Shown: positions 15,890 to 44,046, counted from the stretch's first letter. The stretch is DNA of 63,197 bases from Chloroflexota bacterium (GCA_005889275.1 VBFI01000043.1:1-63197); one strand, 5' to 3'. The notes: generated by a model not told the origin, from the sequence alone. Numbers and translations: made by a program.

Positions 15890-15904
15890 AACGGTATGAC
15901 CATT
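15890..15904. promoter_or_regulatory. Operator A: AACGGTATGACCATT (reverse: AATGGTCATACCGTT), GntR/FadR-type palindrome
   Basis: Lies in the divergent region between the LLM oxidoreductase and the BoxB-like operon, 4 nt upstream of the TAGGCT -10. Confidence 0.7.
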
Positions 15905-15908
15905 TCGT

Positions 15909-15914
15909 TAGGCT
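15909..15914 (+). promoter_or_regulatory. -10-like TAGGCT, 6 nt upstream of the BoxB-like GTG 15921 (leaderless signature)
   Basis: Same geometry. Operator A occupies the spacer just upstream. Confidence 0.5.
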
Positions 15915-15920
15915 AGACGC

Positions 15921-17228
15921 GTGAACGACGAGATCCGGGCGCTTCCGAAGGCCTATCACGAGGCGATCGAGCACTGGCAGCGCCACAACTTCCCCGACTA
16001 TCCGAAGCTCGCGGAAGAGTGGGATCGCTTCTTCCCCAAGGACGAGCCGTTCTGCCTCTGCGCGAAGATCGCGACCGACACCCCCGACGACATCGAGGTG
16101 GGGGATCATCGCGGCGAGAGGAAGGCGCTCGTCCCGAAAGAGCTCCCGCCGGAGGCGGCCCAGCACCTGCTGATGCAGATCAAGGCGCAGGCTTCCACCG
16201 AATTCGGATCGATCCAGCAGCATCAGGGCACGCTCGCGCGCGCGCAGGAGCCGCAGGATCACGCGTGGGCGCTCCGCGTTATGGCCGAGGAGCTTCGCCA
16301 CGGCTACCAGATGGTCCACCTGCTCACGAGCGCGGACTGGTCGCCGGTGACCGACACGAAGGCCGCGGACATGGTCGAGGAGATCCTCTCGATGCAGACC
16401 GGCTCGCACGTGCTCGCGGCGTTCAACCTCGAGTACGACAGCTTCCTCGACAACGTCGTCTTCGCGGCCTTCATCGATCGGGTCGGCAAGTACCAGCTCA
16501 CGATGCAGAAGATCTCCGCGTACCGGCCGTACGCCTCGAGCATGCCGCCGATGCTCCGGGAGGAGGCGTTCCACCTCGCGGCCGGGGTGATCCCGCTCCG
16601 GCGCTGGGTCGAGGCCGCCGCGCGCGGCGACGGCTACATCTCGATGGGCGACATCCAGCGCGCGATCGCGAAGTGGTTCGGCCGGGGTCTCGAGATGTTC
16701 GGAGACGAACGCGGCGGGCAGACGAACGTGAAGTTCGGCCTCAAGGACATGGCCAACCGTGAGGCGCAGGACATGTACGTAGACGAGCTCCAGCGGATGC
16801 TCGACGACCTGAACGAGCGCTACGTGCGCGCGCGCTTCCCGAACCTGCCTCGCGACGAAGCGGAGGCGCGCTTCGCGCGGGTCAGAGCGGGCGAGACCGT
16901 CGAGGGCGTGGGGCCGGACGAGCTGCTGCGGCTGCCCGACCGGCGCTTCTTCCGGCGGCGCGGGGAGCCGGCCTACCAGATGGTCGGCGCGCACGGCGAG
17001 AGCTTCACCGACGTCGAGCGGTACGTCGCGCACGTGCTCGCGTACCTGCCGGAGGCGTACCGCGCCTCCATCGACGTCAAGCACTGGGCCGATCTGCAGC
17101 GTAAGGTCGCGCGCGGCGAGATGCCGCTCAAGGAGGCGATCAGCTCGATGCCCCGCCTCGCGCGCGTCGGGGGCGCGTGCCCCTGCGCGAAGTCGGTCCG
17201 CTGGGTCATGGAGTCGACTCCCAACTAG
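15921..17228 (+). CDS. BoxB-like di-iron aryl-CoA oxygenase (benzoyl-CoA 2,3-epoxidase B family, PaaA/BoxB ferritin-like fold)
   Basis: Recalled BoxB landmarks match: EHWQ near the N-terminus, STEFGSIQQHQ, AEELRH (ExxH), IDRVGKYQL, REEAFH (ExxH). The leaderless-type GTG is 6 nt after TAGGCT. Confidence 0.7.
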   Translation: MNDEIRALPKAYHEAIEHWQRHNFPDYPKLAEEWDRFFPKDEPFCLCAKIATDTPDDIEVGDHRGERKALVPKELPPEAAQHLLMQIKAQASTEFGSIQQHQGTLARAQEPQDHAWALRVMAEELRHGYQMVHLLTSADWSPVTDTKAADMVEEILSMQTGSHVLAAFNLEYDSFLDNVVFAAFIDRVGKYQLTMQKISAYRPYASSMPPMLREEAFHLAAGVIPLRRWVEAAARGDGYISMGDIQRAIAKWFGRGLEMFGDERGGQTNVKFGLKDMANREAQDMYVDELQRMLDDLNERYVRARFPNLPRDEAEARFARVRAGETVEGVGPDELLRLPDRRFFRRRGEPAYQMVGAHGESFTDVERYVAHVLAYLPEAYRASIDVKHWADLQRKVARGEMPLKEAISSMPRLARVGGACPCAKSVRWVMESTPN

Positions 17229-17246
17229 TCCGACCGGAGGGTCAAG

Positions 17247-17969
17247 GTGACGCAGTTCAACGACCGGATCGAGCCCAAGGACTTCGCGAAGATGCCCAAG
17301 GAGTACCAGAGTCTCCTCACGCGGCTGCTCACGATCCAGGCCGACTGCGAGATCGGCGGGCCGCACATCTACGTCGACCACTGGACGCTTCGCGCGCCGA
17401 CGGTCGACGATCAGTGGCGCGTCGCGAAGATCGCCATGGAGGAGATCGACCACTGCCGCAAGTTCCTCCGCATGCTCGGGCTCCTCGAGATCGATCGATC
17501 GGACATCCTCACGCGCCCGCGCAGCAAGCGCGAGGTCGACGCGTTCAAAGAGGACATGCCGCACTGGGCCGACTTCGCCGCGTTCGGCATGCTGATCGAC
17601 AAGGTGGGTGAGTACCAGCTCGAGGAGATGACGAGCTCGTCGTACCGTCCGGTCGAGGACTACCTGCCGCAGATCCTCCGCGAGGAGAAAGGCCACATCA
17701 GCTACGGGCAGCAGCAGCTCGAGAAACTGGTGAAATCGGGCGATGAAGGGCGCGCGGCCGCCCAGGCCGCGATCGACAAGTGGTACATCGTCGGTCTCGA
17801 CATGTTCGGGACATCGGGCTCGTCCCGGACCGAGCGCTACATCGAGTGGGGTCTGAAGCGTCGTACGAACGAGGAAGCGCGCCGCCAGTACATCGCCGAG
17901 GTCGACCCACAGATCGAGGCCCTGGGTCTCGTCATCCCGGACAAGCTCCAGGGCCGGAAGTACCTCTAG
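17247..17969 (+). CDS. PaaA/PaaC-family ferritin-like di-iron protein (short paralog of the upstream gene)
   Basis: GGAGGG SD 5 nt upstream of the GTG. Both ExxH boxes are kept (MEEIDH, REEKGH), plus IDKVGEYQL. Confidence 0.7.
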   Translation: MTQFNDRIEPKDFAKMPKEYQSLLTRLLTIQADCEIGGPHIYVDHWTLRAPTVDDQWRVAKIAMEEIDHCRKFLRMLGLLEIDRSDILTRPRSKREVDAFKEDMPHWADFAAFGMLIDKVGEYQLEEMTSSSYRPVEDYLPQILREEKGHISYGQQQLEKLVKSGDEGRAAAQAAIDKWYIVGLDMFGTSGSSRTERYIEWGLKRRTNEEARRQYIAEVDPQIEALGLVIPDKLQGRKYL

Positions 17970-18007
17970 CCACGGTCCGCGAGACCTTTAACCTCGCGGT
18001 CGCGCTC

Positions 18008-19492
18008 GTGGACGCGCACCTCGAGGCGGGTCGCGGCGATCGGCCGGCGATCCGCTCCTCGGGTGAGACTCTTTCATACGCCGCGGTCGCGGGCCGGGTG
18101 AACCGGGCCGGGAACGCGCTCCGGGCGCTCGGCGTCGAGCCCGAACAGCGCGTCGCCCTCATCCTCCCTGACTCGCCGGACTTCGTCGCTGCGTTCCTCG
18201 GCGCGATCAAGGTCGGGGCCGTGCCCGTGACGCTCTCGACGCTCCTCACGCCTTTTGACCAGGCAGTCCTGATCGACGACAGTCGAGCGCGCGTCCTCGT
18301 CGTCCACGAGACGCTCGCCCCGGCGCTCGAGGCACAGCGCGCCCAGCTCCGCCAGCTGCGGCACGTGCTCGTGGCGGGCGGTGCGCGCTCGTCGTTCGCC
18401 GCCGCCGTCGCGGGCGCGTCGGACGAGCTCGAGCCCGAGCCAACGCGGCCGGACGACATGTGCTTCTGGCAGTACTCGAGCGGCACGACCGGCAGACCGA
18501 AGGCGGTCGTGCATCTGCAGCAGAGCGCGCTTGCTCCCGCGGAGCTCCATGGCCGGCACGTCGTCGCGATGCGGCCGGACGATCGCGTGTTCAGCGTCGC
18601 GAAGCTCTTCTTCTCGTACGGCCTGAACAACTCTCTGGTCATCCCCTTCCGGCACGGCGCGCTGACGATCCTCGAGTCCGCTCGTCCGGAGCCCGCGACC
18701 GTGTTCGAGACCATCGCCCGGGAGCGCCCGACCGTGTTCTACGGCGTGCCGACGAGCTACGGCGCGATGCTCGCGCACGGCGGCGAGCCGGACACGAGCT
18801 CGATCCGCGTCTACGTCTCGGCCGGTGAGGCGCTGCCGAAGCCGCTGTTCCAGCGATGGAAGGCGCGTTTCGGCCAGGAGATCCTCGACGGCATCGGCTC
18901 GACCGAGATCGGATACATCGCGATCTCGAATTTCGCGGGCCGGGCCCGGCCCGGCACGTCGGGCGAGGTCATCCCCGGGTACGAGGCGAAGGTCGTCGAC
19001 GGCGAGGGTCAGCGGCTGCCTCCCGGCGAGATCGGCGACCTGCTCGTCCGGGGGCCGTCGACCGCGCTCGGCTACTGGAACAACCGCGCCGCGACGAAGC
19101 GGACCTTCCGCGGCGAATGGGTGTTCACCGGCGATCGCTATTCCGTGGACGCCGAGGGCTACCACATGTACCAGGGGCGCAGCGACGACCTCCTGAAGGT
19201 CGGCGGGATCTGGGTATCGCCGCTCGAGGTCGAGACGGCCCTGCTCGAGCACGACGCGGTGCTCGAGTGCGCGGTGGTCGCGCGTGAGGACTCGGACGGT
19301 CTCGTCAAACCGAGCGCCTACGTGGTCCTCCGCGAGGGCGGCGCGCCGAGCCAGGGTCTCGCCGGGGAGCTCCGTGCGTTCGTGAAAGACCGCCTGGCGC
19401 CGTACAAGTACCCTCGGTGGATCGAGTTCGTACCGGAGCTGCCGAAGACGTCCACCGGGAAGATCCAGCGCTTCAAGCTGCGGGCGCGATGA
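18008..19492 (+). CDS. Aryl-CoA ligase, benzoate / 4-hydroxybenzoate-CoA ligase family (AMP-forming); start uncertain
   Basis: YSSGTTGRPKAVVH AMP-binding box and C-terminal PKTSTGKIQRFKLR. The conserved N-terminal FNLAVALVDAHLEAGRGDRPA lies upstream of the first non-overlapping canonical start (GTG 18008). See findings. Confidence 0.75.
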   Translation: MDAHLEAGRGDRPAIRSSGETLSYAAVAGRVNRAGNALRALGVEPEQRVALILPDSPDFVAAFLGAIKVGAVPVTLSTLLTPFDQAVLIDDSRARVLVVHETLAPALEAQRAQLRQLRHVLVAGGARSSFAAAVAGASDELEPEPTRPDDMCFWQYSSGTTGRPKAVVHLQQSALAPAELHGRHVVAMRPDDRVFSVAKLFFSYGLNNSLVIPFRHGALTILESARPEPATVFETIARERPTVFYGVPTSYGAMLAHGGEPDTSSIRVYVSAGEALPKPLFQRWKARFGQEILDGIGSTEIGYIAISNFAGRARPGTSGEVIPGYEAKVVDGEGQRLPPGEIGDLLVRGPSTALGYWNNRAATKRTFRGEWVFTGDRYSVDAEGYHMYQGRSDDLLKVGGIWVSPLEVETALLEHDAVLECAVVAREDSDGLVKPSAYVVLREGGAPSQGLAGELRAFVKDRLAPYKYPRWIEFVPELPKTSTGKIQRFKLRAR

Positions 19493-19956
19493 CCACGCAC
19501 CGCGTCGCGTTCACGCTGAACGGCGCAGCGCGCGCGATCGACGTTCCCGCGGACCGCCTCCTCATCGACGCGCTTCGCGACGAACTCGGCGCGACGGGTA
19601 CGAAGCTCGGATGCGGCATCGGCGTGTGCGGCGCCTGCAGCGTGCTCGTCGACGGCGAGCTCCTCTCCGCATGCCTCCTGCCGGCCATCTTCGTCGACGG
19701 GCATGCCGTCACGACCGTCGAAGGGCTCGCCGCCGATGGCGAGCTCACCGCGACGCAGGATGCCTTCATCCGCGATGGTGGTTTCCAGTGCGGCATCTGC
19801 ACGCCGGGCCAGCTCGTCGCGGCGACCGCGCTGCTCGTCGAGCACCCCCGGCCGAGTCCCGACGAGATCCGGACGTGGATGATGGGGAATCTCTGCCGGT
19901 GCACCGGCTACTACGGCATCGAGCGCGCGATCGGCCGCGCGGCGGGGATGACGTGA
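19489..19956 (+). CDS. [2Fe-2S]-binding small subunit of a molybdenum hydroxylase (CoxS/XdhC-type)
   Basis: ATGA overlap with the ligase. CGIGVCGAC and CGICTPG...CRCTGY cluster motifs. Confidence 0.9.
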   Translation: MTTHRVAFTLNGAARAIDVPADRLLIDALRDELGATGTKLGCGIGVCGACSVLVDGELLSACLLPAIFVDGHAVTTVEGLAADGELTATQDAFIRDGGFQCGICTPGQLVAATALLVEHPRPSPDEIRTWMMGNLCRCTGYYGIERAIGRAAGMT

Positions 19957-20801
19957 GCTTCGACTACCACGCGCCGCGATCGGTCGGCGAGGCTCTCGCG
20001 CTCCTCGAGCGTTATGGCGAGGACGCGCATGTCATGGCGGGCGGCACCGCGACGGTGCTCCTCATGCGGCAGGGGCTCCTCCGTCCCGGTCACGTCGTCG
20101 GCCTTCGCGCGATCGACGAGCTTCGCGGTATCTCGCGCACCGGGAGCGGCGGCCTGCGGATCGGCGCGACCGTGACACACCGGGAAGTCGAGCGCTCCGC
20201 CGAGGCGCGCGCGTACAGCTCCGCGCTCATCGAGGCTTTCGCGAGCGTCGCGACCGTGCGCATCCGCAATCAGGCGACGGTCGCCGGGAATCTCGCGCAC
20301 GCGGATCCGGCTCAGGATCCGCCGCCGATGCTCGCGGCCTTTGGCGCGACCGTGAACGTCCGGTCGCCGCGCGGCGGCCGCGCGCTGCCGGTCAGCGAGC
20401 TCGCGGTCGATCACTTCACCACGTCGCTCGCGCACGACGAGGTCATCACGGAGATCGTGCTGCCCCCGCTCGAAGCGGGCTCGCGCGGCACGTACCTGAA
20501 GTTCCTCCCGAAGACCGCCGACGACTACGCGACGGTGTCCGTCGCCGCGACCCTGCGGCTGGCAGACGACGGGACGATCGCCGAGACGCGGATCGTGCTG
20601 GGCGCGGTCGGGCCGACACCCATCCGAGCCCGTCGCGTCGAGGAGGCGCTGCGTGGGCGAACCGCTCGAGCGGTCGCGGAAGCCGCGGCGCTGGTCCGGG
20701 AAGAGGTCGACCCGATCGACGACGCCCGCGGCTCGGTGTCGTACAAACGGGAGATGGCTCGGGTCTGGACCGGACGCGCGCTGGCGCGACTCCTCCGATG
20801 A
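19953..20801 (+). CDS. FAD-binding medium subunit of a molybdenum hydroxylase (CoxM-type)
   Basis: GTGA overlap. AGGTATVLLMR FAD motif, CO-dehydrogenase flavoprotein C-terminal domain. The protein contains no cysteine. Confidence 0.85.
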   Translation: MSFDYHAPRSVGEALALLERYGEDAHVMAGGTATVLLMRQGLLRPGHVVGLRAIDELRGISRTGSGGLRIGATVTHREVERSAEARAYSSALIEAFASVATVRIRNQATVAGNLAHADPAQDPPPMLAAFGATVNVRSPRGGRALPVSELAVDHFTTSLAHDEVITEIVLPPLEAGSRGTYLKFLPKTADDYATVSVAATLRLADDGTIAETRIVLGAVGPTPIRARRVEEALRGRTARAVAEAAALVREEVDPIDDARGSVSYKREMARVWTGRALARLLR

Positions 20802-21247
20802 AGTTCACGCACACCGCCACCGTCGCCGCGCCGCGCGCGAAGGTGTGGGCCCAGGTGATGGACGTCCCCGCGGCCGCGCGGTGCGTTCCGGGCGTCGCGT
20901 CGGTTCGTGCGTCGGGCAACGGCAAGTACCAGGGGACGCTCGCGGTCCAGGTTGGGCCGGTCCGCCTCGTCCTCGACGGCGACCTCGCGATCACCGCGCG
21001 CGATGAGACGGCGGGCACGGCGTCGCTTCGCGCCGAGGCAAAGGATTCGCGCGTCGGTGGCGCCATCCACGCGACGATGAACCTCGCGCTCGCCGAAAAA
21101 GGTGGCGAGACTGAGCTCCGCATCGACAGCGACCTCGCCGTGATGGGTCGCCTGGGCGAGTTCGGGCAGCCGGTCATCAAGCGGAAGGCCGACCAGCTCA
21201 TGCGCGACTTCGCCGAGTGCCTGGCGCGCCAGGCTTCCGCCCGGTGA
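20798..21247 (+). CDS. SRPBCC / CoxG-family protein
   Basis: ATGA overlap. 149 aa with the typical CoxG layout (VWAQVMD...CVPG...GEFGQPVIKRKADQLMRDF). Confidence 0.75.
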   Translation: MKFTHTATVAAPRAKVWAQVMDVPAAARCVPGVASVRASGNGKYQGTLAVQVGPVRLVLDGDLAITARDETAGTASLRAEAKDSRVGGAIHATMNLALAEKGGETELRIDSDLAVMGRLGEFGQPVIKRKADQLMRDFAECLARQASAR

Positions 21248-23442
21248 CGAACGTCGCCGACCGGACCGCTTCCGTCCTCGGCGATCCGGAGTACCGGGTC
21301 GAGGGGCGGGACAAGGTCACCGGCGCCGCCCGGTACGCGGCGGACGTCGCGATGCCTGGCATGCTCCATGTCGCCTTCGTCGCGAGTCCGTACGCGCACG
21401 CGCGCATCGTCGCGATCGACGTGTCCGACGCGCGCGCGCTTCCCGGGGTGCGGGCGGTGATCACGGGCGAGGACACGAAGCCGGCACGGCTCGGTCGGCG
21501 GCTGCAGGACTGGCCGGTCCTCTGCTGGGACCGCGTCCTCTTCATCGGCGACCGCGTCGCCGCGATCGCGGCGGACAGCGCGGCGATCGCCGAGGACGCG
21601 GCGCGCCGCGTGCGTGTGGAGTACGAGGAGCTTCCCGCCGTCCTCGATGCGGACGCCGCGCGCGGTCCCCAGGCGCCGGTGCTCCATCCCGACGCGTCCT
21701 CGTACCGGTATTTCGGCGGCGACCGTCCCTCGATCCCGCATCCGAATTTGCAGGCATACGCGGTCCACCGCCACGGCGACGTCGATGCCGGCTTTCGGGC
21801 GGCGCATCGCGTCTACTCCCACACGTTCACGGTGCCGCGGACGCATCAGGCGTACATCGAGCCCCGCGCCGCCCTCGTTTGGCTCGACGGCGAAGTGCTG
21901 CACGTCGTCACCACCAACAAGGCGCCGTTCGCGCTGCGCCAGCAGATGGCCGCCTCGCTTGGGATCGCCGAAGCGAACATCGTGGTGGACGCCGGACACA
22001 TCGGCGGCGATTTCGGCGGGAAGGGGCTCTCGCTCGACGAGTTCGCCCTCGCCTACCTCGCGCGCGCGAGCGGCCGCCCGGTTCGTTCGGTCACCCGCTA
22101 CGCCGACGACATGCAGGCCACGAACACGCGTCACGCCGCCACGATCGCGCTGACCACTGCGGTCGACGCCGACGGTCGGATCCTCGCCCACACCTCGCGA
22201 GTCGTGTTCGACGGCGGCGCGTACGCGGCGGGAAAGCCGGTCGCGACGCTCCTGCCGGGCGACGCGATGCTCACGCTCGCCGGGTACCGGGTCCCGGCGG
22301 CCTCGGTCGAGGCGATGAGCGTGTATACGAACCAGGTGCCGGCGGGCCACTCGCGCGCGCCGGGCCAGCCGCAGAACGCGTTCGCCGCGGAGTCGCACAT
22401 CGATCTCGTCGCGCGGTCGCTCGGCATCGATCCGCTGGTCATGCGCGAGCGCAACGTGGTACGGCCGGGCGACATCGATATCACCGGCGCGCCCTGGCAT
22501 GGCACCGACGGCGCGGAGGTGCTCGCGCGACTCCGGACCGCCGCTCACTACGCCGAGGCGCGAACGACCCCGCACAGCCTCGGCGCGCCCGCCATCGGCT
22601 CCGGCGTCGCGCTCGGCGTTCGGCACGTCGGACGGGGACGCGCGTCGATGGTGCTGCGCCTCAGTCGAGGCCGCGTGGAGCTTCGCACCGGCGTGGCCGA
22701 CCAGGGGGGCGGCGCCTACACGCTCTTCCAGCGCATCGTCGCGACCGAGCTCGGGATCCCGCTCGGTCGCGTCACCGTGACGCGCGGCGCGACGGACGCG
22801 GTGCCGAACGATCCGGGCGTGGGAGGAAGTCGGGTGACGCCGGTGCAGGGCGGCGCCGCCCTGGACGCGGCCCGCAAGCTCCGGGTCAGGCTCGCCGAGC
22901 TCGGCCGCGCTCTGGCCGACGCGGGCGATCTCGAGGTGATCGGCGAGGCGTCGCAGGAGACCCACGACGCCTCGATGTACGCCTACGCGCTGCGCGTCCT
23001 CGTGGACGTGGAGACCGGCTCCACGAAGGTCGAGCACGCGACCCTCGTCGCGGACGTGGGGACGGTCATCAACCCGGTTGCCCTGCGCGGGCAGCTCGAG
23101 GGTGGCTTCGTGTTCGGCCTCGGGCAGGCGCTCATGGAGGAGCTGCGCCTCGAGGACGGCCGCGTCACGAACCCGAGCTTCGCGGATTACAAGATCCCCA
23201 CGATCGCCGATGTCCCGCCGCTTCAGGTCGAGCTCATCACGGGCGACCCCGGGCCGGGGCCCTTCGGGGCGAAGTCCGTCGGCGAGCTCGCGAATCCGGC
23301 CGTCGGCGCGGCGGTCGCGAACGCGGTCCAAGACGCCGTCGGCGTCCGCGTGTGGAGCTTGCCGATCACGGCCGAGAAGATCTGGGCGGAGCTCACCCGA
23401 CCCGACGAAGTGCGCGAGGTCGCCGGCTCGGCCGAGGATTGA
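21244..23442 (+). CDS. Molybdopterin-binding large subunit of a xanthine-dehydrogenase-family hydroxylase (CoxL-like, not CO dehydrogenase)
   Basis: GTGA overlap. RVEGRDKVTGAARYAAD N-terminus, GGDFGGKG and AGHSRAPGQPQ motifs. I saw no AYxCSFR CODH signature. Confidence 0.85.
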   Translation: MTNVADRTASVLGDPEYRVEGRDKVTGAARYAADVAMPGMLHVAFVASPYAHARIVAIDVSDARALPGVRAVITGEDTKPARLGRRLQDWPVLCWDRVLFIGDRVAAIAADSAAIAEDAARRVRVEYEELPAVLDADAARGPQAPVLHPDASSYRYFGGDRPSIPHPNLQAYAVHRHGDVDAGFRAAHRVYSHTFTVPRTHQAYIEPRAALVWLDGEVLHVVTTNKAPFALRQQMAASLGIAEANIVVDAGHIGGDFGGKGLSLDEFALAYLARASGRPVRSVTRYADDMQATNTRHAATIALTTAVDADGRILAHTSRVVFDGGAYAAGKPVATLLPGDAMLTLAGYRVPAASVEAMSVYTNQVPAGHSRAPGQPQNAFAAESHIDLVARSLGIDPLVMRERNVVRPGDIDITGAPWHGTDGAEVLARLRTAAHYAEARTTPHSLGAPAIGSGVALGVRHVGRGRASMVLRLSRGRVELRTGVADQGGGAYTLFQRIVATELGIPLGRVTVTRGATDAVPNDPGVGGSRVTPVQGGAALDAARKLRVRLAELGRALADAGDLEVIGEASQETHDASMYAYALRVLVDVETGSTKVEHATLVADVGTVINPVALRGQLEGGFVFGLGQALMEELRLEDGRVTNPSFADYKIPTIADVPPLQVELITGDPGPGPFGAKSVGELANPAVGAAVANAVQDAVGVRVWSLPITAEKIWAELTRPDEVREVAGSAED

Positions 23443-23449
23443 CCCCGGC

Positions 23450-25029: not shown

Positions 25030-25040
25030 GGGGGAACCAC

Positions 25041-28982: not shown

Positions 28983-28990
28983 ATCTCCTC

Positions 28991-35029: not shown

Positions 35030-35044
35030 AATGATCATACCATT
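35030..35044. promoter_or_regulatory. Operator C: AATGATCATACCATT
   Basis: Lies in the divergent region between UbiD-1 and the second ABC system. One mismatch. Confidence 0.65.
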
Positions 35045-35072
35045 GGACCAACCGTGCGATGCTGAGGTGAGC

Positions 35073-36802: not shown

Positions 36803-36889
36803 GTCGCCCGAGGCGCAGCCGCACTCCCGCGCGCGGGCCCACTCGTCGCGGGAGGCTAGGCTTGTCGGACAACACAGGGGAGGAAGCCC

Positions 36890-37279
36890 ATGGCAGGGAA
36901 CATCGTTCACTTCGAGATCAACGCCAAGGACGCCGGCCGCGCGAAGCGCTTCTACAGCACCGTCTTCGGTTGGAAGTTCAAGGACTCGGCCATGCCCGGT
37001 ATCGAGTACTACCTGACGGACGGGACGCAGCCTCCCGGGGCGATCAACCCGATGCAGCAGGACCCCGGTCCGGTCGTGTACTTCGACACGGACGACATCG
37101 ATGCGTCCATCAGGAAGATCCGCGAGCTCGGCGGAAAGGCCGACGACAAGCAGCCGATCCAGGGCCAGGGCTGGTTCGCGGCATGTGTCGACACAGAGGG
37201 AAACAAGATCTCGCTCTTCCAGGCCGACCCGAGCGTGACGGTGGAGACCGAGCGCCAGTACCAGCAAGCCCGCGCATAA
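36890..37279 (+). CDS. VOC-family (glyoxalase/bleomycin-resistance fold) protein
   Basis: IVHFEI...AKRFYSTVFGW...GWFAACVDTEGNKISLFQ. Strong SD GGGGAGGAAG. Confidence 0.8.
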   Translation: MAGNIVHFEINAKDAGRAKRFYSTVFGWKFKDSAMPGIEYYLTDGTQPPGAINPMQQDPGPVVYFDTDDIDASIRKIRELGGKADDKQPIQGQGWFAACVDTEGNKISLFQADPSVTVETERQYQQARA

Positions 37280-37312
37280 GGTCGAACCAACAGCAGCTCT
37301 CATACGCGACCT

Positions 37313-37347
37313 GAGGCCGCCGGGACGCGGGTTGGCCCGGCGGCCTC
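37313..37347 (+). terminator. GC-rich hairpin after the VOC gene (no U-tract)
   Basis: Perfect 12-bp stem GAGGCCGCCGGG / CCCGGCGGCCTC with an 11-nt loop, abutting operator D. Confidence 0.45.
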
Positions 37348-37362
37348 AATGGTCATACCATT
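37348..37362. promoter_or_regulatory. Operator D: AATGGTCATACCATT (perfect 6-3-6 palindrome), autoregulatory site
   Basis: Ends 9 nt upstream of the gntR GTG and directly follows a 12-bp-stem hairpin. Confidence 0.75.
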
Positions 37363-37371
37363 CGCAGCGCT

Positions 37372-38133
37372 GTGTTCACTCCGATCCACCAGGCGCGCGC
37401 CTCGGGTGAGATCGTTTCCCAGATCGAGCGGGCGATCTTCGCCGAGGAGCTCTCGGCGGGCGACCGGCTCCAATCAGAGCGCGAGCTGGCCGAGCAGTTC
37501 GGCGTCTCACGCATCACCGTGCGTGACGCGCTCCGCGTCCTCGAGGCGCGCGGCCTCATCCGTGTGAAGGTCGGCGCGACCGGCGGGGCGTTCGGCGCGG
37601 ACGCGAGCACCGACCGCGTGGCCGAATCGCTCTCGACGATGATCCGACTCAAGCGCATGACCCTCTCCGAGCTCGCGGAGGCGCGGACGGTCGTCGAGGC
37701 GGCCACCGCCGCGCTCGCCGCCCAGCGCGCCAACGCCGGAGCCGTCTCGCGCCTCGCGCAGAACGCGCAGCAGGGCCGCGCGGTGATCCGCGAGAGCGTC
37801 ACCCACGCGGAGGCGAGCATGGACTTCCATGTCGAACTCGCGCGCGCGGCCGGCAACGAGGTCCTCTACGCGACGGTCGCGGCGTATCGCGAGCTGCTCG
37901 TCCCGGCGCTCCGCGATCTGCGCAACCCGAGCACGGTGAACAAGACGCAGAAGATCCACGAGGAGCTCGTCGAGGCGGTCCGCCGCCACGATGCGGAAGG
38001 GGCGCGCGAGCTGATGGTGGCGCATCTCGAGGACTTCGAGAAGCGTCTGCGCAGGCGGCTCGTGGAACGGGAAGAGGAGCGCCTTCCGACCGGCAACGTG
38101 CATCGACTCGTCCGTCCCGGAGGAAAACGCTGA
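37372..38133 (+). CDS. GntR-family transcriptional regulator, FadR subfamily (FCD ligand domain)
   Basis: wHTH LQSERELAEQFGVSRITVRDALRVLEARGLI, followed by an all-helical FCD-type domain (HVELARAAGNEVL...H). Confidence 0.9.
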   Translation: MFTPIHQARASGEIVSQIERAIFAEELSAGDRLQSERELAEQFGVSRITVRDALRVLEARGLIRVKVGATGGAFGADASTDRVAESLSTMIRLKRMTLSELAEARTVVEAATAALAAQRANAGAVSRLAQNAQQGRAVIRESVTHAEASMDFHVELARAAGNEVLYATVAAYRELLVPALRDLRNPSTVNKTQKIHEELVEAVRRHDAEGARELMVAHLEDFEKRLRRRLVEREEERLPTGNVHRLVRPGGKR

Positions 38134-39935
38134 TGGCGGTCGCAGCGAGACCCAGCCAGCGGACCGGCCGCGGCTACCCGGACCTGCGCGAGCATCTCGA
38201 GGCGCTCGACCGGGCCGGCCTGCTCGTCAGGGTCCGCCGTCCGATGCTCGCCGAGACCGAGATCCATCCGCTCGTGCGGTGGCAGTACCGCGGCGGCTTG
38301 CCGGAGGAGGACTGGAACGCGTTCCTCTTCGAGGACGTCCGGACCGTGAAGGGCGGGCGGTCTCCTTTCCGCGTCGGCGTCGGCGTGCTCGCCGCATCCA
38401 GGTACGTCTACGCGACCGGCCTCGGCTGCGCGCCTGATGAGATCGCCGCCCGGTGGGAGCGCGCGCTCGCTGAGCGCATCGCGCCGACCATCGTCGAGAC
38501 CGGGCCGGTGCACGAGGAGGTGCACATGGGCGACGCGCTCCTCGAGAAGGGCGGGACCGCGGAGTTCCCGATCCCGATCTCGACGCCCGGCTTCGACAAC
38601 GGGCCGTACACGACGTGCACGCACTGGTTCACGAAGGATCCCGAGACCGGCGTGCGCAACCAGGGCAACTACCGGGGTCAGATCAAGAGCCCGACGCGCA
38701 TCGGCATCTTCCCCTCGGGGCTCGGTCAGGACGTTTACATCCACTGGCAGAAGGCGCGCAAGAAGGGAGAGCACCTGCCGGCCGCGCTGGTGATCGGCGG
38801 CCCGCCCGTGGTCAGCTATGCGGCAGTGCAAAAGGTGCCGTACGGGATCGACGAGCTCTCGATCGCCGGCGGCCTCGCGGGCGAGCCGATCCGGCTCGTG
38901 CGTTGCAAGACCGTCCCGCTCGAGGTGCCGGCCGAGGCGGAGATCGTCTTCGAGGGGTACATCAACACGCAGGAGCTCGAGGAAGAGGGCCCCTTCGGCG
39001 AGAGCCACGGCTACATGCACCCGCGCCAGCTCAATCCCTTCTTCGAGGTCACCGCGATCACGCACCGGAAGGACGCGATCTGGGTCTCGTTCATCAGCCA
39101 GGTCACGCCCTCGGAATCGAGCGTCATCAAGAAGGTCGCCTACGAGCCGATCTTCACGCAGCATCTGCGGCAGACCTGCAACATCCGCAGCGTGAAGCGC
39201 GTCGTCATGCACGAGCCGCTCACGAACCTCCGCAAGCTCATCGTCGTGCAGATGGCGAACGGCGCGCGCGAAGCGGAGATCTGGCGCGCCTTGCGCGCCG
39301 CATCGTCGTTCAACCAGGGAGTGGGAAAGATCTGCGTGGCGGTCGACGAGGACATCGATCCGGAGGACTCGACCGCGCTCTGGTGGGCGGTCTGCTACCG
39401 ATCGCGCCCCGCGCAGGACGTCGAGATCACCGGCCATCTCGAGAAGGGCCACGCGCCGCCGTTCAAGGGCACGGGCATCGAGCAGGCCGCCGAAGGGCGC
39501 GACGTCGTGGGGCACGGCGACCCGGCGGACGACAGCGGCATGCTCATCAATGCCTGCCTCAAGGAGCCGTGGCCGCCGATCTCGCTTCCGAGCAAAGAGC
39601 ACATGGAGAACGCGCTCGAGATCTGGAACGAGCTCGGCCTGCCAAAGGTCCGCCCGCAGCGGCCCTGGTACGGCTATTCGCTCGGGCAGTGGGACGCCGA
39701 GCTCGAGGAGGAGGCTCGACTCGCCCTCCTGGGGGAGCACTTCAAGACCGGAGAGAAGATGGCGAAGCGCCGCGTGAAGCTCTCCGACACCCGCGCCGCG
39801 CGAGCCGACGCCTATCTCGGCACCGACCCGGTCCCCGGCACGCCGGTCGACCGGCGAGCCGCGGAGCAGGGTCCGGGCGGGCCCGGGTACGACGACGAGG
39901 CCCCGCGCGAAGTCCCGAACGACGACGCAGTGTGA
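38133..39935 (+). CDS. UbiD-family decarboxylase, paralog 2, with ~95-aa charged C-terminal extension
   Basis: TGATG overlap with gntR. NQGNYRGQ and EGPFGESHGYM motifs. Confidence 0.85.
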   Translation: MAVAARPSQRTGRGYPDLREHLEALDRAGLLVRVRRPMLAETEIHPLVRWQYRGGLPEEDWNAFLFEDVRTVKGGRSPFRVGVGVLAASRYVYATGLGCAPDEIAARWERALAERIAPTIVETGPVHEEVHMGDALLEKGGTAEFPIPISTPGFDNGPYTTCTHWFTKDPETGVRNQGNYRGQIKSPTRIGIFPSGLGQDVYIHWQKARKKGEHLPAALVIGGPPVVSYAAVQKVPYGIDELSIAGGLAGEPIRLVRCKTVPLEVPAEAEIVFEGYINTQELEEEGPFGESHGYMHPRQLNPFFEVTAITHRKDAIWVSFISQVTPSESSVIKKVAYEPIFTQHLRQTCNIRSVKRVVMHEPLTNLRKLIVVQMANGAREAEIWRALRAASSFNQGVGKICVAVDEDIDPEDSTALWWAVCYRSRPAQDVEITGHLEKGHAPPFKGTGIEQAAEGRDVVGHGDPADDSGMLINACLKEPWPPISLPSKEHMENALEIWNELGLPKVRPQRPWYGYSLGQWDAELEEEARLALLGEHFKTGEKMAKRRVKLSDTRAARADAYLGTDPVPGTPVDRRAAEQGPGGPGYDDEAPREVPNDDAV

Positions 39936-40012
39936 TGCGCATGGCGGTCTCGTCGAAGGCGGGATGAAATGAGCGACGAGCGGTTCATCCGCGAGGAGCG
40001 AATCTGCCAGCC

Positions 40013-40480
40013 ATGAGCACGTCTGCGCGGCGGAGCCGCGAGATTGAGCAGGATCGGTATGCCGCGGCGAAGCAGATTCTCTCGCGGATCGCGGCGATCG
40101 CCGAGCATCCTGGTTCACGGACGACGCGGCTGATCCAGGCCTCACGAGAGTTCAGCGTTTCGCTCCTCCACGACGCGCAGCAGGACCTCGCGATGGCCGC
40201 CGGCCGCTCGGCCGAGGGCCCCGACAAGTTCGCGGCACTGGGGATCCCGGTCGCGACGCAGCCTGAGTTCAAGGCTCCGGCCGTCGACGGCAGTCTCGCG
40301 ATGCTCTGGTGCAGGGTCGTCGAGGAGCGCCCGACCGGCGATCACATCCTCTTCGTCGGCGAGATCCAGGGCGCCGTCACCAACGACCGGAAGTTCGACG
40401 CGCTCCTTCGATATCGGCGGCGCTACCTGCGCATGGGCCACTGGACCTCCGAGGAAGCTCCCGAGGGATACCCGACGTAG
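40013..40480 (+). CDS. Flavin-reductase-like domain protein, N-terminal half aberrant (possible remnant)
   Basis: The C-terminal 100 aa match flavin reductase domain landmarks (FSVSLL..DQ..LA..., PDKF, GDHILFVGEI, LLYRRRY). The first ~45 aa do not. Confidence 0.5.
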   Translation: MSTSARRSREIEQDRYAAAKQILSRIAAIAEHPGSRTTRLIQASREFSVSLLHDAQQDLAMAAGRSAEGPDKFAALGIPVATQPEFKAPAVDGSLAMLWCRVVEERPTGDHILFVGEIQGAVTNDRKFDALLRYRRRYLRMGHWTSEEAPEGYPT

Positions 40481-40482
40481 GC

Positions 40483-41058
40483 GTGCGGCGGATCGTCGTC
40501 GGGATCTCGGGTGCCTCCGGCGCGATCTACGGCATCCGCATGCTCGAGGCCCTGCAGAAGGCGAAGGACGTCGAGACCCACCTGATCGTCTCGACCGGCG
40601 CGAAGGCGACGATCGCGTATGAGACGCCGTGGCGGATGGAGAATGTTCTTGGCCTCGCCGACATCGTCCACGACGAGCGCGATCTCTCCGCGACCCTCGC
40701 GAGCGGCAGCTTTCAGACCCACGGCATGGTCGTCGCGCCGTGCTCGATCCGGACGATGTCGTCGATCGCCAACTCGTTGAACGACAACCTCATCGTGCGG
40801 GCGGCGGACGTCCACTTGAAGGAGCGCCGCACGCTCGTGCTCATGGTGCGCGAGACCCCGCTCCACGCGGGACACCTCCGCCTGATGCACGAGCTCGCGC
40901 TCACCGGTGCGGTCATCCTTCCGCCCGCTCCCGGCTTCTACCACCTGCCCAAGACGATCGAGGATCTCGTCGATCACAGCGTCGGCAAGGCGCTGGACCA
41001 GCTCGGGATCGAGCACGCGCTCTTCCGAAGGTGGAACGGAGTCGCCAAGACGGAGTGA
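40483..41058 (+). CDS. ubiX: Flavin prenyltransferase UbiX (prFMN synthase)
   Basis: RIVVGISGASGAIYG, VVAPCS..T...IA and LVLMVRETPLH motifs. GTG 2 nt after the upstream stop. Confidence 0.9.
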   Translation: MRRIVVGISGASGAIYGIRMLEALQKAKDVETHLIVSTGAKATIAYETPWRMENVLGLADIVHDERDLSATLASGSFQTHGMVVAPCSIRTMSSIANSLNDNLIVRAADVHLKERRTLVLMVRETPLHAGHLRLMHELALTGAVILPPAPGFYHLPKTIEDLVDHSVGKALDQLGIEHALFRRWNGVAKTE

Positions 41059-41774
41059 GCGTCCGGAGCCCGTCCGGCCTCGCCCTCCAGGTCGCCGCGG
41101 CGAGCCGGGCGCTCGCGGTCGCCGGCCTCTTCGACATGCACGGCCACCTGAGCGTCCGCGAGGGCGACATCGCGTATGTGAACGCGCACAGCGCGAGCCG
41201 GATCGCGATCCGACCCGACGAGGTCGCGAGTGTGCGCATCGGGGACGGGGCCACGGTCGGCGGGACCCCACCGAGCGAGCTGCCCATTCATCTTGAGATC
41301 TACCGGGCGCGCGCCGACGTCGGCGCGGTCGTCCACTTCCATGCGCTCTACGCGACCGCGCTGGCGGTCGCAGGGAAGCCCTTCGTCGCCGCCTTCAACG
41401 CGGGCGCCCCGTTCGGTCGCGAGGTCCCCGTCTTCGACGATCCGCGGCTCGTACGCGACGACGCGATGGGCCGGAGGGTCGCCGCCGTCGTGGGGAGCGG
41501 GCGCGCGGCGGTCCTGCGTGGGCACGGCGCGGTGATCGCCGCGGCGGGCATCGTTGACGCGGTCGCCCTGGCCCTCGAGCTCGAGGAGAGCGCTCGGCGG
41601 CTCTGGCTCAGCTACGCGATCGGCGGGCCCCGACGCTTCAGCGCGGACGAGCTCGCGAGCGTTGCCGCCGGGATCGGTGAGCCGCGCGTCACGCGCAAGA
41701 TCTGGATCGACGCGCTCGAACGTGCCCGCCTCGCGGGGGCCCTGGCCGGACTCGACATTGAGTCGCTGATCTGA
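41055..41774 (+). CDS. Class II aldolase / adducin N-terminal domain protein
   Basis: GTGA overlap with ubiX. ELPIHLEIY and VVHFHALYATA (HxH metal ligands) motifs. Confidence 0.75.
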   Translation: MSVRSPSGLALQVAAASRALAVAGLFDMHGHLSVREGDIAYVNAHSASRIAIRPDEVASVRIGDGATVGGTPPSELPIHLEIYRARADVGAVVHFHALYATALAVAGKPFVAAFNAGAPFGREVPVFDDPRLVRDDAMGRRVAAVVGSGRAAVLRGHGAVIAAAGIVDAVALALELEESARRLWLSYAIGGPRRFSADELASVAAGIGEPRVTRKIWIDALERARLAGALAGLDIESLI

Positions 41775-41877
41775 ACCCGAACGGTCCCGGCGGCCCGCCC
41801 GCGCTACGGCCTCCTCGCGCTCTGTCAAGGCAGGCCGACCCTCGCCATGGCGGGCCTCGACCCGCGCGCGTCGGCTC

Positions 41878-42639
41878 GTGATACTCCCCGGCGTGCCGGT
41901 CGATCAGGACGAGCGCGAGATCGAGGAGAGCCGGGAGAGCTACCGCGAGTGGCTCGCCGGCCCCGAGTCGTTCCTTGCGGCCGTCGCGCGTCATGAGCTC
42001 CCGATCGGCGAGACCCTGCGGTTCGGCGCGAACGCCGACGTCGACCTCCCCGACGCGGGCGCGCGCCTCGAGATCGCCGCGAGCGAGGATGGCTTCCGGG
42101 TCGATGGCTTTAAACGCGGCCCGGGGATCGTCCGGCTCGGCCGCTACCGCCTCCGGCTCTCGCACCAGAACGCGCCCGCCGTCGTGATCCTCGATCCGGA
42201 GGCGCCTCGACCGACGCTCGCGCCACGGTGGTACCCGTACGACGCGCGCTTTCGGCTGACGCTCTCGCTGGAGCCGGACGCGCTGCGGATCGCGCTCGGA
42301 TCGACGCGCGAGCACGATCGGTCGGCCGAGCGGGTGGGCTGGTTCGCGTTCACCCTGGAGGGCAACGCCTGCCGGCTCGCGGCCACGCGCCTCATCGAGC
42401 CGGGCGTGCCGAAGGACTCGCTCCAGCTCTTCTTCCGGGACCGCACCAGCGGCGAAACCACGTACGGCCTCGGCCGCTATCTCGATCTCGAGGACTCCGG
42501 AGATGGCCGCTACGTCGTCGACTTCAACCGCGCATACAACCCGGCATGCGCGTTTTCGCCCTACTACAACTGCCCGGTCCCTCCGGAAGAGAACCGCCTT
42601 CCGGTCATGATCACCGCGGGAGAGATGACACCCCGGTAG
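41878..42639 (+). CDS. DUF1684-family protein
   Basis: C-terminal AYNPACAFSPYYNCPVPPEENRLPVMITAGE is the signature of DUF1684. Confidence 0.7.
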   Translation: MILPGVPVDQDEREIEESRESYREWLAGPESFLAAVARHELPIGETLRFGANADVDLPDAGARLEIAASEDGFRVDGFKRGPGIVRLGRYRLRLSHQNAPAVVILDPEAPRPTLAPRWYPYDARFRLTLSLEPDALRIALGSTREHDRSAERVGWFAFTLEGNACRLAATRLIEPGVPKDSLQLFFRDRTSGETTYGLGRYLDLEDSGDGRYVVDFNRAYNPACAFSPYYNCPVPPEENRLPVMITAGEMTPR

Positions 42640-42684
42640 GGCTGGCATGGTCCCTGCGGCCGCTTTCCGGCAGGAGGTCACGAA

Positions 42685-42999
42685 ATGGATACACGCACCC
42701 AGGAGGTCCACGTCCCGAGCGAGCACGTGGCTGTTGTCGCGATCTTCGCGGACCGCGAGGCGGCGGAAGCCGCGATCGATGCCCTCCTCGACCAGCGCTT
42801 CACCGACGATCAGATCTCGCTCGTCGCGCGCGGCGCCGGCACCGACGAGTCCGGAAAGTTCGTGCCGGGCGGGCTCATGGTGACGGTGAATGCGACGGGC
42901 CGCGAGCACGACGCCGAGCGGATCCTCACCAGCCACGAGGCCAGCGAGGTGACGACGAACCGCGTCGGCGCGACGGGAAGGGTCGGCGAGGAGACCTAG
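42685..42999 (+). CDS. Small general-stress-like protein (YflT/DUF1269-like N-terminal domain)
   Basis: VVAIFADREAAEAAIDALLDQRF..DQISLVARG motif. 104 aa. Confidence 0.45.
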   Translation: MDTRTQEVHVPSEHVAVVAIFADREAAEAAIDALLDQRFTDDQISLVARGAGTDESGKFVPGGLMVTVNATGREHDAERILTSHEASEVTTNRVGATGRVGEET

Positions 43000-43874
43000 C
43001 GGGCGGCCGCCGGCCGCAACGAGACCGCGCTGTCGATCCAGCGGGTGATGGCGTCGGCCACATCGCGTTCGTGCCCCGAATAGAGATGGTTGGCGCCGGC
43101 GATCATCGCGCCGGTGAAGCGGTCCGGGATGACCTGCCTGAGACGCTCGAGGTCGCTCTCACCACCTACCGCGGCCTCGTCGGTGCCATACATCGCAAGG
43201 ACCGGGCAGCTCGTCGTCACGAGAAGGCCGGAGGGATCGCCAACGAGGGAGCGCGAAAGGATTGTCGCCGCGCTGAGCCGCCCGAACGTGAGTCCCGCGG
43301 TTCCGAGATCGACGAGCTCCTGTGGCCGACCGGCGTTCACGGCTTCACGGGCCCTCGCCAAGAGATCCTCGCCGGGCCGGGCGGCGAAGCCTCGGAGCGG
43401 CGGAGAGGCGAGGATCAGCCCGACGAGCTCGCGGTCGGGTCGGGCGCTCGTGTAGAGGAGCGCCTTCACGGCGCCGAGACTGTGCCCGAGCAGCACGATG
43501 CGCCTCGCGCCGGATGCGAGCGCGAGATCGATCCAGGCGTCGAGATCCTCGGCGGCGTCCTCGAGTCGTTCGAACCAGGCGCCGCCGAGGCGCACACCAT
43601 CGCGGGTCGGCAACGGAGTCGCGAGGCCCGACCCACGATTGTTGCCGGCGATGACCGTGTATCCAGCCGCACCGAGTTCGCGCCCGACCCGCACGTGCCC
43701 CTGCCGGAACACGGAGCTTCGGACCCCATGCATGTAGACGATCGCGAGATCGCTCGGCGGCGGCCCATGCCGGACGCCCTCGAGCAGCAGTCCGTCGGAG
43801 GTGTACGCGTGGAGCAGCTCTTCCGTCACCGAGTCCGGCAACGCTACTCCGCCGGACCGCGGGCCCCCGCGCAT
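42996..43874 (-). CDS. Alpha/beta-fold hydrolase
   Basis: Nucleophile elbow GHSLGA. ATG 43874 is chosen because the longer tracked ORF would run through operator E and into the SBP-4 gene. Confidence 0.7.
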   Translation of the reverse strand: MRGGPRSGGVALPDSVTEELLHAYTSDGLLLEGVRHGPPPSDLAIVYMHGVRSSVFRQGHVRVGRELGAAGYTVIAGNNRGSGLATPLPTRDGVRLGGAWFERLEDAAEDLDAWIDLALASGARRIVLLGHSLGAVKALLYTSARPDRELVGLILASPPLRGFAARPGEDLLARAREAVNAGRPQELVDLGTAGLTFGRLSAATILSRSLVGDPSGLLVTTSCPVLAMYGTDEAAVGGESDLERLRQVIPDRFTGAMIAGANHLYSGHERDVADAITRWIDSAVSLRPAAAR

Positions 43875-44031
43875 CGCGTCGATCACCGCCTGCGCGAGGA
43901 TCCAACCCCACTTCTTGCGTGTCTCGCGCTTGGTCTCGGCGTCGGGGCCGATCGCGATCGAAGACGAGCGGCTCGACGCCGCAGACGACCGCTCGCGGAG
44001 GTCTCCGCATTCTCCGCCGCGTCGGTGGTCA

Positions 44032-44046
44032 AATGGTCTTACCATT
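44032..44046. promoter_or_regulatory. Operator E: AATGGTCTTACCATT (perfect palindrome)
   Basis: Lies 34 nt upstream of the SBP-4 ATG, at the head of the SBP4-UbiD3-CoA-transferase-fni operon. Confidence 0.75.

Follow-up and report, generated by a model that had tools for sequence, protein, structure and literature searches.

A conserved 15-bp palindrome is the probable operator of a FadR-type GntR regulator in a catabolic gene island of Limnocylindria-type Chloroflexota

Among the closest described systems in which one GntR/FadR-family regulator governs a catabolic gene island is DipR of Alcaligenes faecalis JQ135, a repressor of the dipicolinate dip cluster that has been proven by electrophoretic mobility shift assay, footprinting, rapid amplification of 5' cDNA ends (5'-RACE) and mutants (PMC11472048). 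Operators of the FadR subfamily are built of TKGT/ACMA boxes in which GT and AC typically stand 3 nt apart; those of DgoR, ExuR, FadR, GlcC, LldR and PdhR are examples (PMC4494728). On the enzyme side, a module of succinyl-CoA:phthalate CoA-transferase, phthaloyl-CoA decarboxylase (Pcd) and UbiX leads to benzoyl-CoA in denitrifying and sulfate-reducing bacteria (PMC13040137). Here, we analyzed a stretch of 63,197 nt from a Chloroflexota bacterium (GCA_005889275.1, VBFI01000043.1:1-63197; this whole stretch is called the window below), the host being a Limnocylindria-type soil Chloroflexota. A first-pass annotation had noticed in it five copies of a 15-bp palindrome, AATGGT-N3-ACCATT, which were proposed to tie about 34 kb of catabolic genes to one FadR-type GntR regulator, the product of gene g36 (gntR). 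The locus resembles the dip system in having one island-encoded FadR-type regulator, a short palindrome at several promoter regions including that of the regulator gene itself (six promoter regions and six units in dip), and an aromatic dicarboxylate as the presumed substrate (PMC11472048). It differs from dip in its operator (GWATAC in dip), in its host, which is proteobacterial in dip, and in an unrelated enzyme set, and it is known from sequence alone. The best overall explanation of the data presented here is that the palindrome is, quite probably, the operator of the g36 regulator.

When AATGGTNNNACCATT was searched across the window with up to two mismatches, only the following five matches were found (starting at 15890, 31806, 35030, 37348 and 44032), each with 0-1 mismatch, exactly where the first-pass annotation had placed them. 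Scores are those of a 19-mer weight matrix trained on orthologous sites; SBP denotes a substrate-binding protein and ABC2 the second ATP-binding cassette (ABC) system.

Site A, 15890-15904: AACGGTATGACCATT, on the reverse strand AATGGTCATACCGTT; one mismatch, 22.9 bits.
Site B, 31806-31820: AAAGGTTATACCATT; 30.1 bits; 32 nt 5' of the first SBP gene (g29), which is on the minus strand.
Site C, 35030-35044: AATGATCATACCATT; 33.0 bits; between the UbiD1 gene (minus strand) and the ABC2 operon (plus strand, start 22 nt on).
Site D, 37348-37362: a perfect AATGGTCATACCATT; 33.2 bits; the start codon of gntR lies 9 nt downstream.
Site E, 44032-44046: a perfect AATGGTCTTACCATT; 29.9 bits; between an alpha/beta hydrolase gene (minus strand, 145 nt away) and an SBP operon (plus strand, 18 nt away).

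Dinucleotide shuffles of the window gave an expectation of 0.23 sites, and none of 100 shuffles reached five. With three mismatches allowed, two extra matches appeared (50044 and 57523), which is chance level. Since an AT-rich word is favoured in the intergenic DNA of a window with ~70% GC, the intergenic segments were also shuffled alone (40 segments, 20-nt padding); here 0.0015 sites were expected versus the five observed. The weight matrix separates the five sites (22.9-33.2 bits) from the next-best position of the window, which scores 1.9 bits, and the claim that the motif occurs nowhere else in the window thus holds. Genes were called by a codon-usage score (open reading frame (ORF) lists being uninformative at this GC), which yielded 59 genes with approximate starts and which misses or mis-starts several divergent genes; the called genes were annotated by Pfam, NCBIfam and PDB sequence search, and five of them (g13, g30, g31, g42 and g59) have no Pfam match. 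All five sites fall in the 5' regions of called genes, and each has at least one neighbouring start codon at a distance of 9-32 nt.

An exact-sequence look-up of the 253-aa g36 protein returned no record, and orthologues were used in its place. Regulator homologues numbered 601 at E < 1e-20, the top 120 being 62-90% identical; where the sources give a name, it is FadR-family or PdhR-like, from 'Chloroflexi' or 'Candidatus Limnocylindria' metagenome-assembled genomes (MAGs). Eleven loci (L001-L011) came from exact-protein look-ups and 80 more from species-representative genomes via a 29-orthologue alignment, fetched as 20-kb loci. The orthologous set comprised 59 loci with a regulator 62-94% identical, namely the first 11 together with L012-L058 and L062 (these latter nearly all labelled Limnocylindria or Chloroflexota), and ~47 of the 59 are species-level MAGs; the control set comprised L059-L061 and L063-L091 (539 kb), which carry GntR paralogues of at most ~48% identity. 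Boxes with up to one mismatch were found 99 times in the 855 kb of orthologous loci, at least one in 47 of the 59, whereas the 539 kb of control loci (paralogues below 50% identity) contained none. As some of these genomes are redundant or close, the number of unique sites, 109 after de-duplication, is a fairer count than the raw numbers. All but four of the unique boxes (105/109) are intergenic or coincide with the start of a gene, in DNA of which only 6.6% is intergenic; of the remaining four, three are explained by wrong start codons in the gene calls. Thus, both checks suggested in the first pass, phylogenetic footprinting and a comparison of intergenic with coding positions, were passed in the fetched loci: the box is not a feature of coding sequence.

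The first gene after a box was gntR in 23 cases, UbiD1 in 21, the ABC2 ATPase in 19, the SBP called NMT1-c in 14, UbiD3 in 13 and a flavin reductase in nine; further genes behind boxes encode thiamine diphosphate (ThDP) enzymes, bicupins, an SBP_bac_1-type ABC system, EutA-like proteins and major facilitator superfamily (MFS) or Tct transporters. Gene order is heavily shuffled among the genomes and the boxes stay with the same gene families, the order gntR-UbiD600-flavin reductase-UbiX-aldolase being kept in L001-L005. With regard to the individual sites, a box upstream of NMT1-c (the site-B position) is kept in many orthologous loci, the sequence of site C recurs identically at the equivalent position in many of them, a perfect box stands 9-10 nt 5' of gntR (site D) in L001-L005, L012-L020 and others, and boxes lie 5' of UbiD3/NMT1-d orthologues (site E) in more than 15 loci. 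Site A is 21 kb from gntR and therefore outside the first locus set, so that a separate metagenome scan was made, for which the di-iron protein g16 served as query. Of the 75 independent metagenome loci with enough upstream sequence, 56 have AACGGTATGACCATT or a variant close to it 28-30 nt 5' of the start codon, and these boxes were the sole matches with up to one mismatch in all 546 kb of the metagenome loci. Footprint, co-occurrence and operator form together support, in silico, the proposed link between the island and one FadR-type GntR regulator. Autoregulation through site D, which had also been suggested, is backed by the position of the box 9 nt before gntR and by its frequency in relatives (a site with up to two mismatches 5' of gntR or its operon in 31 of 53 loci), but it is not universal; in a distant subgroup, a 3-mismatch site, GATTGTTATACCTTT, stands 5' of a bicupin-gntR operon.

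Several further observations were made in these loci. The MAG SMAG_U4566 contains two regulator paralogues, in L015 (DASYTL010000010.1) and L019 (DASYTL010000040.1), which are 91% and 83% identical to g36; the same perfect box is located 9 nt upstream of each, and cross-regulation between the duplicated regulons is therefore possible. In marine Rhodospirillaceae/Rhodospirillales MAGs (L068, L069, L071, L078, L079, L082 and L083), whose GntR proteins are only 31-35% identical to g36, a related kept box, AATTGTTATATCATT, lies ~90-105 nt 5' of gntR (e.g. L068 9911-9925), which may point to a larger clade of regulators that use similar operators. A contig from a Joint Genome Institute (JGI) soil metagenome, L092 (Ga0066673_10002991, 6360 bp), encodes a protein 100% identical to g16 and has 1-2 differences in 60 nt of the site-A region; it is probably from the same population as the window.

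The 109 unique sites have the consensus CGAATGGTnAtACCATTCG, with a TGGT/ACCA core, in which GT and AC are 3 nt apart, and with flanks rich in A/T. The earlier remark that the box fits the generic GntR operator form can be sharpened: it equals the FadR-subfamily consensus, and PdhR, LldR and GlcC share the same dyad, spacing and A/T-rich flanks (PMC4494728). An extended 25-bp palindrome (GGTC...GACC) was considered and ruled out: counting the CG flanks, the dyad is 19 bp long, but the GACC at +17 to +20 finds no counterpart on the left side, where T occupies position -2 in only 9/109 sites. The right half-site and the last spacer base are much better kept than the left half-site, positions 10-15 being near-invariant, and the left half varies among AATGAT, AATTGT, AATGTT and AAACGT. 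Spacer position 9 is T in 88 of the 109 sites (81%), and the right half-site, read as TACCAT, therefore fits TAnnnT, which is the sole -10-like pattern discerned in this lineage. The same pattern recurs 6-7 nt before GTG/ATG starts of box-free genes (e.g. TAGGAT before gntR in L008, 9975-9993), and TAGGCT, TACGCT or TACCCT is found 6-7 nt before the di-iron gene (15909-15921 in the window; also L098, L148, L168 and L171); such sequences suggest that leaderless or near-leaderless transcription is common in the lineage. The half-site of site A on the di-iron side is GACCAT, and a separate hexamer is present there:

Putative -10 hexamer TAGGCT, 15909-15914, plus strand: 6 nt before GTG 15921, with an equivalent TAnnnT in orthologous loci.

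A bound dimer would hence cover the -10 at the gntR, ABC2, NMT1-d and flavin-reductase genes. At the di-iron operon, it is the -35/spacer region that the operator would cover, from -31 to -17 in the window and from about -44 to -30 in most relatives. Both placements are classical for repression. Occlusion of the -10 by the right half-site, as first proposed, would therefore fit most sites, but not the di-iron operon with its GACCAT and its own TAGGCT.

The gene directly behind site D, g36 (37372-38133), is the sole GntR-family gene among the 59 called, as had been stated. It encodes a FadR-subfamily GntR regulator, as seen in its winged helix-turn-helix (HTH), its FCD domain and the form of the operator. 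Pfam PF00392 (GntR) scores 56.2 bits (cut-off 27) over residues 12-68, and PF07729 (FCD) scores 79.7 bits (cut-off 24.3). An AlphaFold (AF2) model, with a predicted local distance difference test (pLDDT) value of 75, shows a winged HTH of three helices and a two-strand wing, followed by seven helices within residues 82-236. Among the matches listed by Foldseek, all are GntR-family regulators, with NanR, LldR, PmiR, DhdR, FadR and Atu1419/VanR near the top, and a PDB sequence search returned NanR, LldR and PdhR (E 1e-9 to 1e-15, ~25% identity). Residues R47, R51, H153, H196 and H218 are invariant in the 29-orthologue alignment. By their spacing, R47/R51 correspond to the DNA-contact pair R63/R67 of DipR and H196/H218 to its effector pair H196/H218; R45/R49 and H192/H214 of Atu1419 are spaced in the same way. 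LldR binds Zn through D144, H148, H196 and H218 (PMC2602784), and H153, H196 and H218 of g36 align with the three histidines, that is, with three of the four ligands. Some databases label g36 orthologues as 'PdhR-like'; g36 is, however, distant from PdhR, LldR and NanR (~25% identity), lacks the Asp ligand, and is associated with aromatic-acid catabolism instead of lactate or pyruvate regulons.

The island extends from g15 (14848) to g47 (50105) and is flanked by housekeeping genes, namely methionyl-tRNA synthetase (MetRS), TatD, cytochrome c oxidase and a Rieske/cytochrome b cluster on the left, and GroES/EL, an extracytoplasmic function (ECF) sigma/anti-sigma pair (57382-58691) and UvrD on the right. 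The first-pass annotation counted five transcription units. The sites do stand at the heads of units; however, as sites A, C and E each lie between divergent genes, the five may head up to eight units with 33 genes, gntR included:

g15, 14848-15903, minus strand: luciferase-like (LLM) oxidoreductase (Pfam Bac_luciferase).
g16-g25, 15921-26114, plus strand: di-iron/ligase/Mo-hydroxylase/ABC operon with two BoxB/PaaA-like di-iron proteins, a benzoate-CoA-ligase-family enzyme, a Mo-hydroxylase (2Fe-2S, FAD, CoxG and large subunit), an ABC ATPase, a permease and an NMT1-type lipoprotein SBP (Pfam, NCBIfam, PDB); GTG 15921 is 16 nt from site A.
g29-g26, 26118-31773, minus strand: SBP-ThDP-SBP-ThDP, with NMT1-type lipoprotein SBPs and benzoylformate-decarboxylase-like ThDP proteins (Pfam, NCBIfam).
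g32-g30, 31866-34920, minus strand: UbiD1 (PhdA-like), a 368-aa lipoprotein without Pfam match and a 94-aa protein (Pfam, PDB).
g33-g35 (ABC2), 35067-37279, plus strand: ABC ATPase, permease and a glyoxalase-fold protein (Pfam).
g36 (gntR), 37372-38133, plus strand: the 253-aa regulator (Pfam GntR and FCD).
g37-g42, 38133-42999, plus strand: UbiD2 (600 aa), flavin reductase, UbiX, a class II aldolase-fold protein, a DUF1684 protein and a 104-aa protein (Pfam); listed as co-transcribed with gntR.
g43, 42996-43886, minus strand: alpha/beta hydrolase (Pfam), divergent from site E and 145 nt away.
g44-g47, 44065-50105, plus strand: NMT1-type SBP, UbiD3, a fused double family-III CoA-transferase and a type-2 isopentenyl diphosphate (IPP) isomerase (PDB, Pfam, NCBIfam).

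The ATG at 15903, taken by the ORF caller as the start of g15, is the ATG of operator site A itself; an in-frame GTG lies at 15873 and is probably the true start. Within the site-B operon, ~57 conserved N-terminal residues (QRYGSDVIVDLLRAFGIDYVALNPGASYRGLHDS...), with a parallel in g26, are encoded at 30560-30733, upstream of the first ATG/GTG/TTG of the second ThDP gene, g28 (28991-30559, minus strand). A canonical start codon is absent in frame between the g29 stop and 30559, the only candidates being ATA 30733 and ATC codons; this anomaly is explained by a non-canonical start or translational coupling, by a sequencing error, or by a pseudogene truncated at its 5' end.

The clearest assignment of an enzyme concerns the site-E operon. 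UbiD3 (g45) is 65.2% identical over 508 aligned residues to the crystallised Pcd (8pmk/8oz5; E = 1e-239, 800 bits), while the next-best PDB family, AroY, reaches only 1e-42. Judged by this similarity, g45 is a Pcd orthologue, and its activity on o-phthalate/phthaloyl-CoA is likely but not certain. It adjoins g46 (46753-48987), a CoA-transferase with two CoA_transf_3 stretches (448 bits in total) fused into one 744-aa ORF that corresponds to two genes in relatives (386 and 410 aa in L010). The following gene, g47, encodes a type-2 IPP isomerase (IDI-2; NCBIfam IPP_isom_2 352 bits, cut-off 281), and a UbiX gene, g39 (Pfam Flavoprotein, 147.5 bits), is part of the gntR operon behind site D. On the basis of these matches, the site-E operon corresponds to the known phthalate -> phthaloyl-CoA -> benzoyl-CoA module (PMC13040137). 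The statement that this gene combination is not a described pathway must thus be corrected for this operon. Compared with the o-phthalate module of Thauera, Aromatoleum and Azoarcus (SptAB, Pcd, UbiX; PMC13040137), the window has a close Pcd relative, an adjacent double CoA-transferase, alike by family, and a UbiX in the same regulon. It differs in its host, presumably an aerobic Chloroflexota, in its fused transferase, in having genes for an NMT1-type SBP and a type-2 IPP isomerase within the operon, and in that the module is one of ~8 units under a GntR operator.

The other two UbiD proteins are less easily assigned. The best solved relative of UbiD1 is 7pda (E = 1e-107), which is PhdA, a phenazine-1-carboxylate decarboxylase (PMC10850782). 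That of UbiD2 is HmfF (6h6v, E = 1e-42), a distant one. Similarity to these systems (PhdA/PhdB of Mycobacterium fortuitum and the furandicarboxylate decarboxylase HmfF/HmfG) is at the family level only and does not amount to orthology. PhdA and HmfF each depend on a co-encoded UbiX. UbiD2 (38133-39935) has 600 residues, of which Pfam UbiD matches end at residue 433, the remainder having no Pfam match. Its gene is nearly always located directly behind gntR in relatives, with overlapping stop and start codons, as is also the case in the window, and the protein shows 92-94% identity in relatives in which that of the regulator is only 83-91%; UbiD2 is a good candidate for an enzyme acting on the inducer as substrate. 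UbiX requires reduced FMN and a dimethylallyl donor. Together, UbiX, the flavin reductase and IDI-2 would place the synthesis of prenylated FMN (prFMN), their presumed supply role, under the same operator as the three UbiD clients.

The site-A operon looks like aryl-CoA chemistry: its benzoate-CoA-ligase-family enzyme scores 607 bits in NCBIfam (cut-off 375), its two di-iron proteins are distantly related to BoxB and PaaA, and the large subunit of its four-gene Mo-hydroxylase scores best, far below the NCBIfam cut-off, with the alpha subunit of 4-hydroxybenzoyl-CoA reductase. A furfural/hydroxymethylfurfural (HMF; Hmf) or a picolinate/nicotinate cluster was also considered, and no such assignment was made (UbiD2 E = 1e-42; Mo-hydroxylase below cut-off). 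Lipoprotein signal peptides are present in g31 and in each of the four NMT1-type proteins and mark them all as genuine extracytoplasmic binding proteins; the possibility that the NMT1/THI5-like proteins are cytoplasmic enzymes was ruled out, as the signal peptide is found in 4/4. A reasonable reading of the gene content is that the island may form a regulon for the uptake and the decarboxylation or CoA activation of several aromatic carboxylates.

Directly left of the island, a respiratory cluster (6880-12025) encodes cytochrome c oxidase subunits II (with a fused cytochrome c), I, III and IV, a Rieske protein and cytochrome b (with a fused cytochrome c). With an aa3-type oxidase and a bc-type complex beside the island, the host is presumably aerobic. 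A 752-aa ORF with a strong coding signal and without Pfam match lies between this cluster and the island (12114-14372).

From these data we infer how the system would work, from the binding of the protein and the sign of its effect to the inducer and the substrates. A g36 dimer would bind the TGGT-N3-ACCA core at all five sites, each of which would overlap or abut a promoter 9-32 nt from a start codon, and would thereby keep the 33 genes in up to eight units, gntR included, repressed. A small carboxylate-type ligand, most likely an aromatic acid imported by the ABC systems of the island, would bind the probably metal-containing FCD domain and release the protein. The regulon would couple uptake (four lipoprotein SBPs and two ABC systems) with three prFMN-dependent UbiDs (one a Pcd orthologue accompanied by its CoA-transferase), the supply of prFMN (UbiX, flavin reductase and type-2 IPP isomerase) and aryl-CoA processing by the benzoate-CoA-ligase-family enzyme, the BoxB/PaaA-like di-iron proteins and the Mo-hydroxylase. 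Binding of the boxes by g36 is, judging from the sequence data, highly likely. Given binding, repression is favoured with some confidence, because the characterised analogues in catabolic islands (DipR, Atu1419, LldR and NanR) are carboxylate-released repressors.

Some results do not sit easily with this mechanism. The canonical FCD metal site includes an Asp that is not kept in g36, where S149 occupies the position i-4 from H153 and an equivalent of Asp144 of LldR is missing. H145, which is invariant, or D151, which is near-invariant among orthologues, may stand in for it, and a metal site in the FCD domain is probable but not certain. In one orthologous subgroup the autoregulatory site is degenerate (3 mismatches), and in another there is none. 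A scan for E. coli-type sigma-70 promoters over 31700-44150 gave no hit, and the promoter positions as well as the overlap of operator and promoter therefore follow from the TAnnnT rule only. In addition, an asymmetric [C/G]GACC ('SGACC') directly 3' of the box, at +16 to +20 on the gene-proximal side (e.g. GGACC at 35045-35049), is conserved; this conservation could belong partly to the promoter rather than the operator, and SGACC could be a discriminator or an element of the transcription start site (TSS) region, or an extra protein contact.

The asymmetry of the box is also what would be expected if it were read by another transcription factor or by an alternative sigma factor with TACCAT as its -10, the co-location with gntR being coincidental: the right half with T9 is clearly better kept than the left, the SGACC flank is promoter-like, and the window does contain an ECF sigma/anti-sigma pair (57382-58691). 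Yet the box has precisely the dyad of the FadR subfamily, is present only where the orthologous regulator is present, stands directly before gntR in most loci and serves both strands in divergent regions, while the di-iron side of site A has a separate TAnnnT; we therefore regard such a reader as very improbable. That the five matches arose by chance, or as copies of a small repeat or mobile element without regulatory role, could draw on the preference of an AT-rich box for intergenic DNA in a 70% GC genome. However, shuffling of the intergenic DNA itself gives an expectation of only 0.0015 sites, the flanks of the sites have no extended homology to each other, and the box is kept at orthologous 5' regions across dozens of species, so that statistics and footprint effectively refute this idea.

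With regard to the sign of regulation, some FadR-family proteins, including E. coli FadR, both repress and activate, and at the di-iron operon of most relatives the box is found 28-30 nt 5' of a leaderless-type start, with its centre near -37, from where some regulators activate. An activator or dual regulator acting through the same sites, at some or all promoters, appears improbable, since at the gntR, ABC2, NMT1-d/UbiD3 and flavin-reductase genes the box overlaps the sole TAnnnT, 9-40 nt from the start, and the closest characterised catabolic-island analogues (DipR, Atu1419/VanR, LldR and NanR) are repressors. Repression by g36, relieved by a carboxylate, would hence remain the preferred account.

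As a regulatory design, this DipR-like system is ordinary, and as a mechanism it adds nothing new in principle; the regulon resembles many that have been reconstructed by comparative genomics (PMC4494728). It differs from the known systems in lineage (uncultured Limnocylindria), operator word and gene content. In the literature library searched, we found nothing linking Pcd to Chloroflexota or Pcd or UbiD enzymes to Limnocylindria, and nothing relevant on GntR regulators together with Pcd. The genes under its presumed control are more interesting than the switch: a Pcd in a presumably aerobic soil Chloroflexota, a putatively co-regulated supply of prFMN, and modular SBP/ThDP/UbiD/bicupin units.

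To our knowledge, the Limnocylindria (Ellin6529/CSP1-4-type Chloroflexota) are abundant in soil and have no cultured, genetically tractable member, and because of this their regulation is almost unknown. The box and its regulator offer a ready-made, kept operator/regulator pair for this class. The predicted co-regulated set should help to read metatranscriptomes and to assign functions to unannotated neighbours, among them the 600-aa UbiD, the bicupins, the SBP-ThDP pairs and the DUF1684 protein. It also places a Pcd module outside the denitrifying and sulfate-reducing Proteobacteria, in a host with cytochrome c oxidase. Once the ligand is identified, the regulator and its 15-bp operator would be a candidate biosensor part for aromatic carboxylates such as phthalate. 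A more far-reaching possibility, which on balance we consider doubtful, is that the system is the lineage-wide master switch of an undescribed aerobic, prFMN-centred programme by which Limnocylindria consume aromatic mono-, di- and polycarboxylic acids, including the 'anaerobic' Pcd route in an oxygen-respiring host. If this were true, candidate substrates would be the isomers of phthalate and carboxylates of the phenazine or heteroaromatic kind, perhaps also benzene-polycarboxylates derived from humic or pyrogenic carbon, the cofactor supply (UbiX, flavin reductase and IDI-2) would be transcriptionally slaved to substrate availability, and SBP/ThDP/UbiD/bicupin modules would be exchanged among species under one operator.

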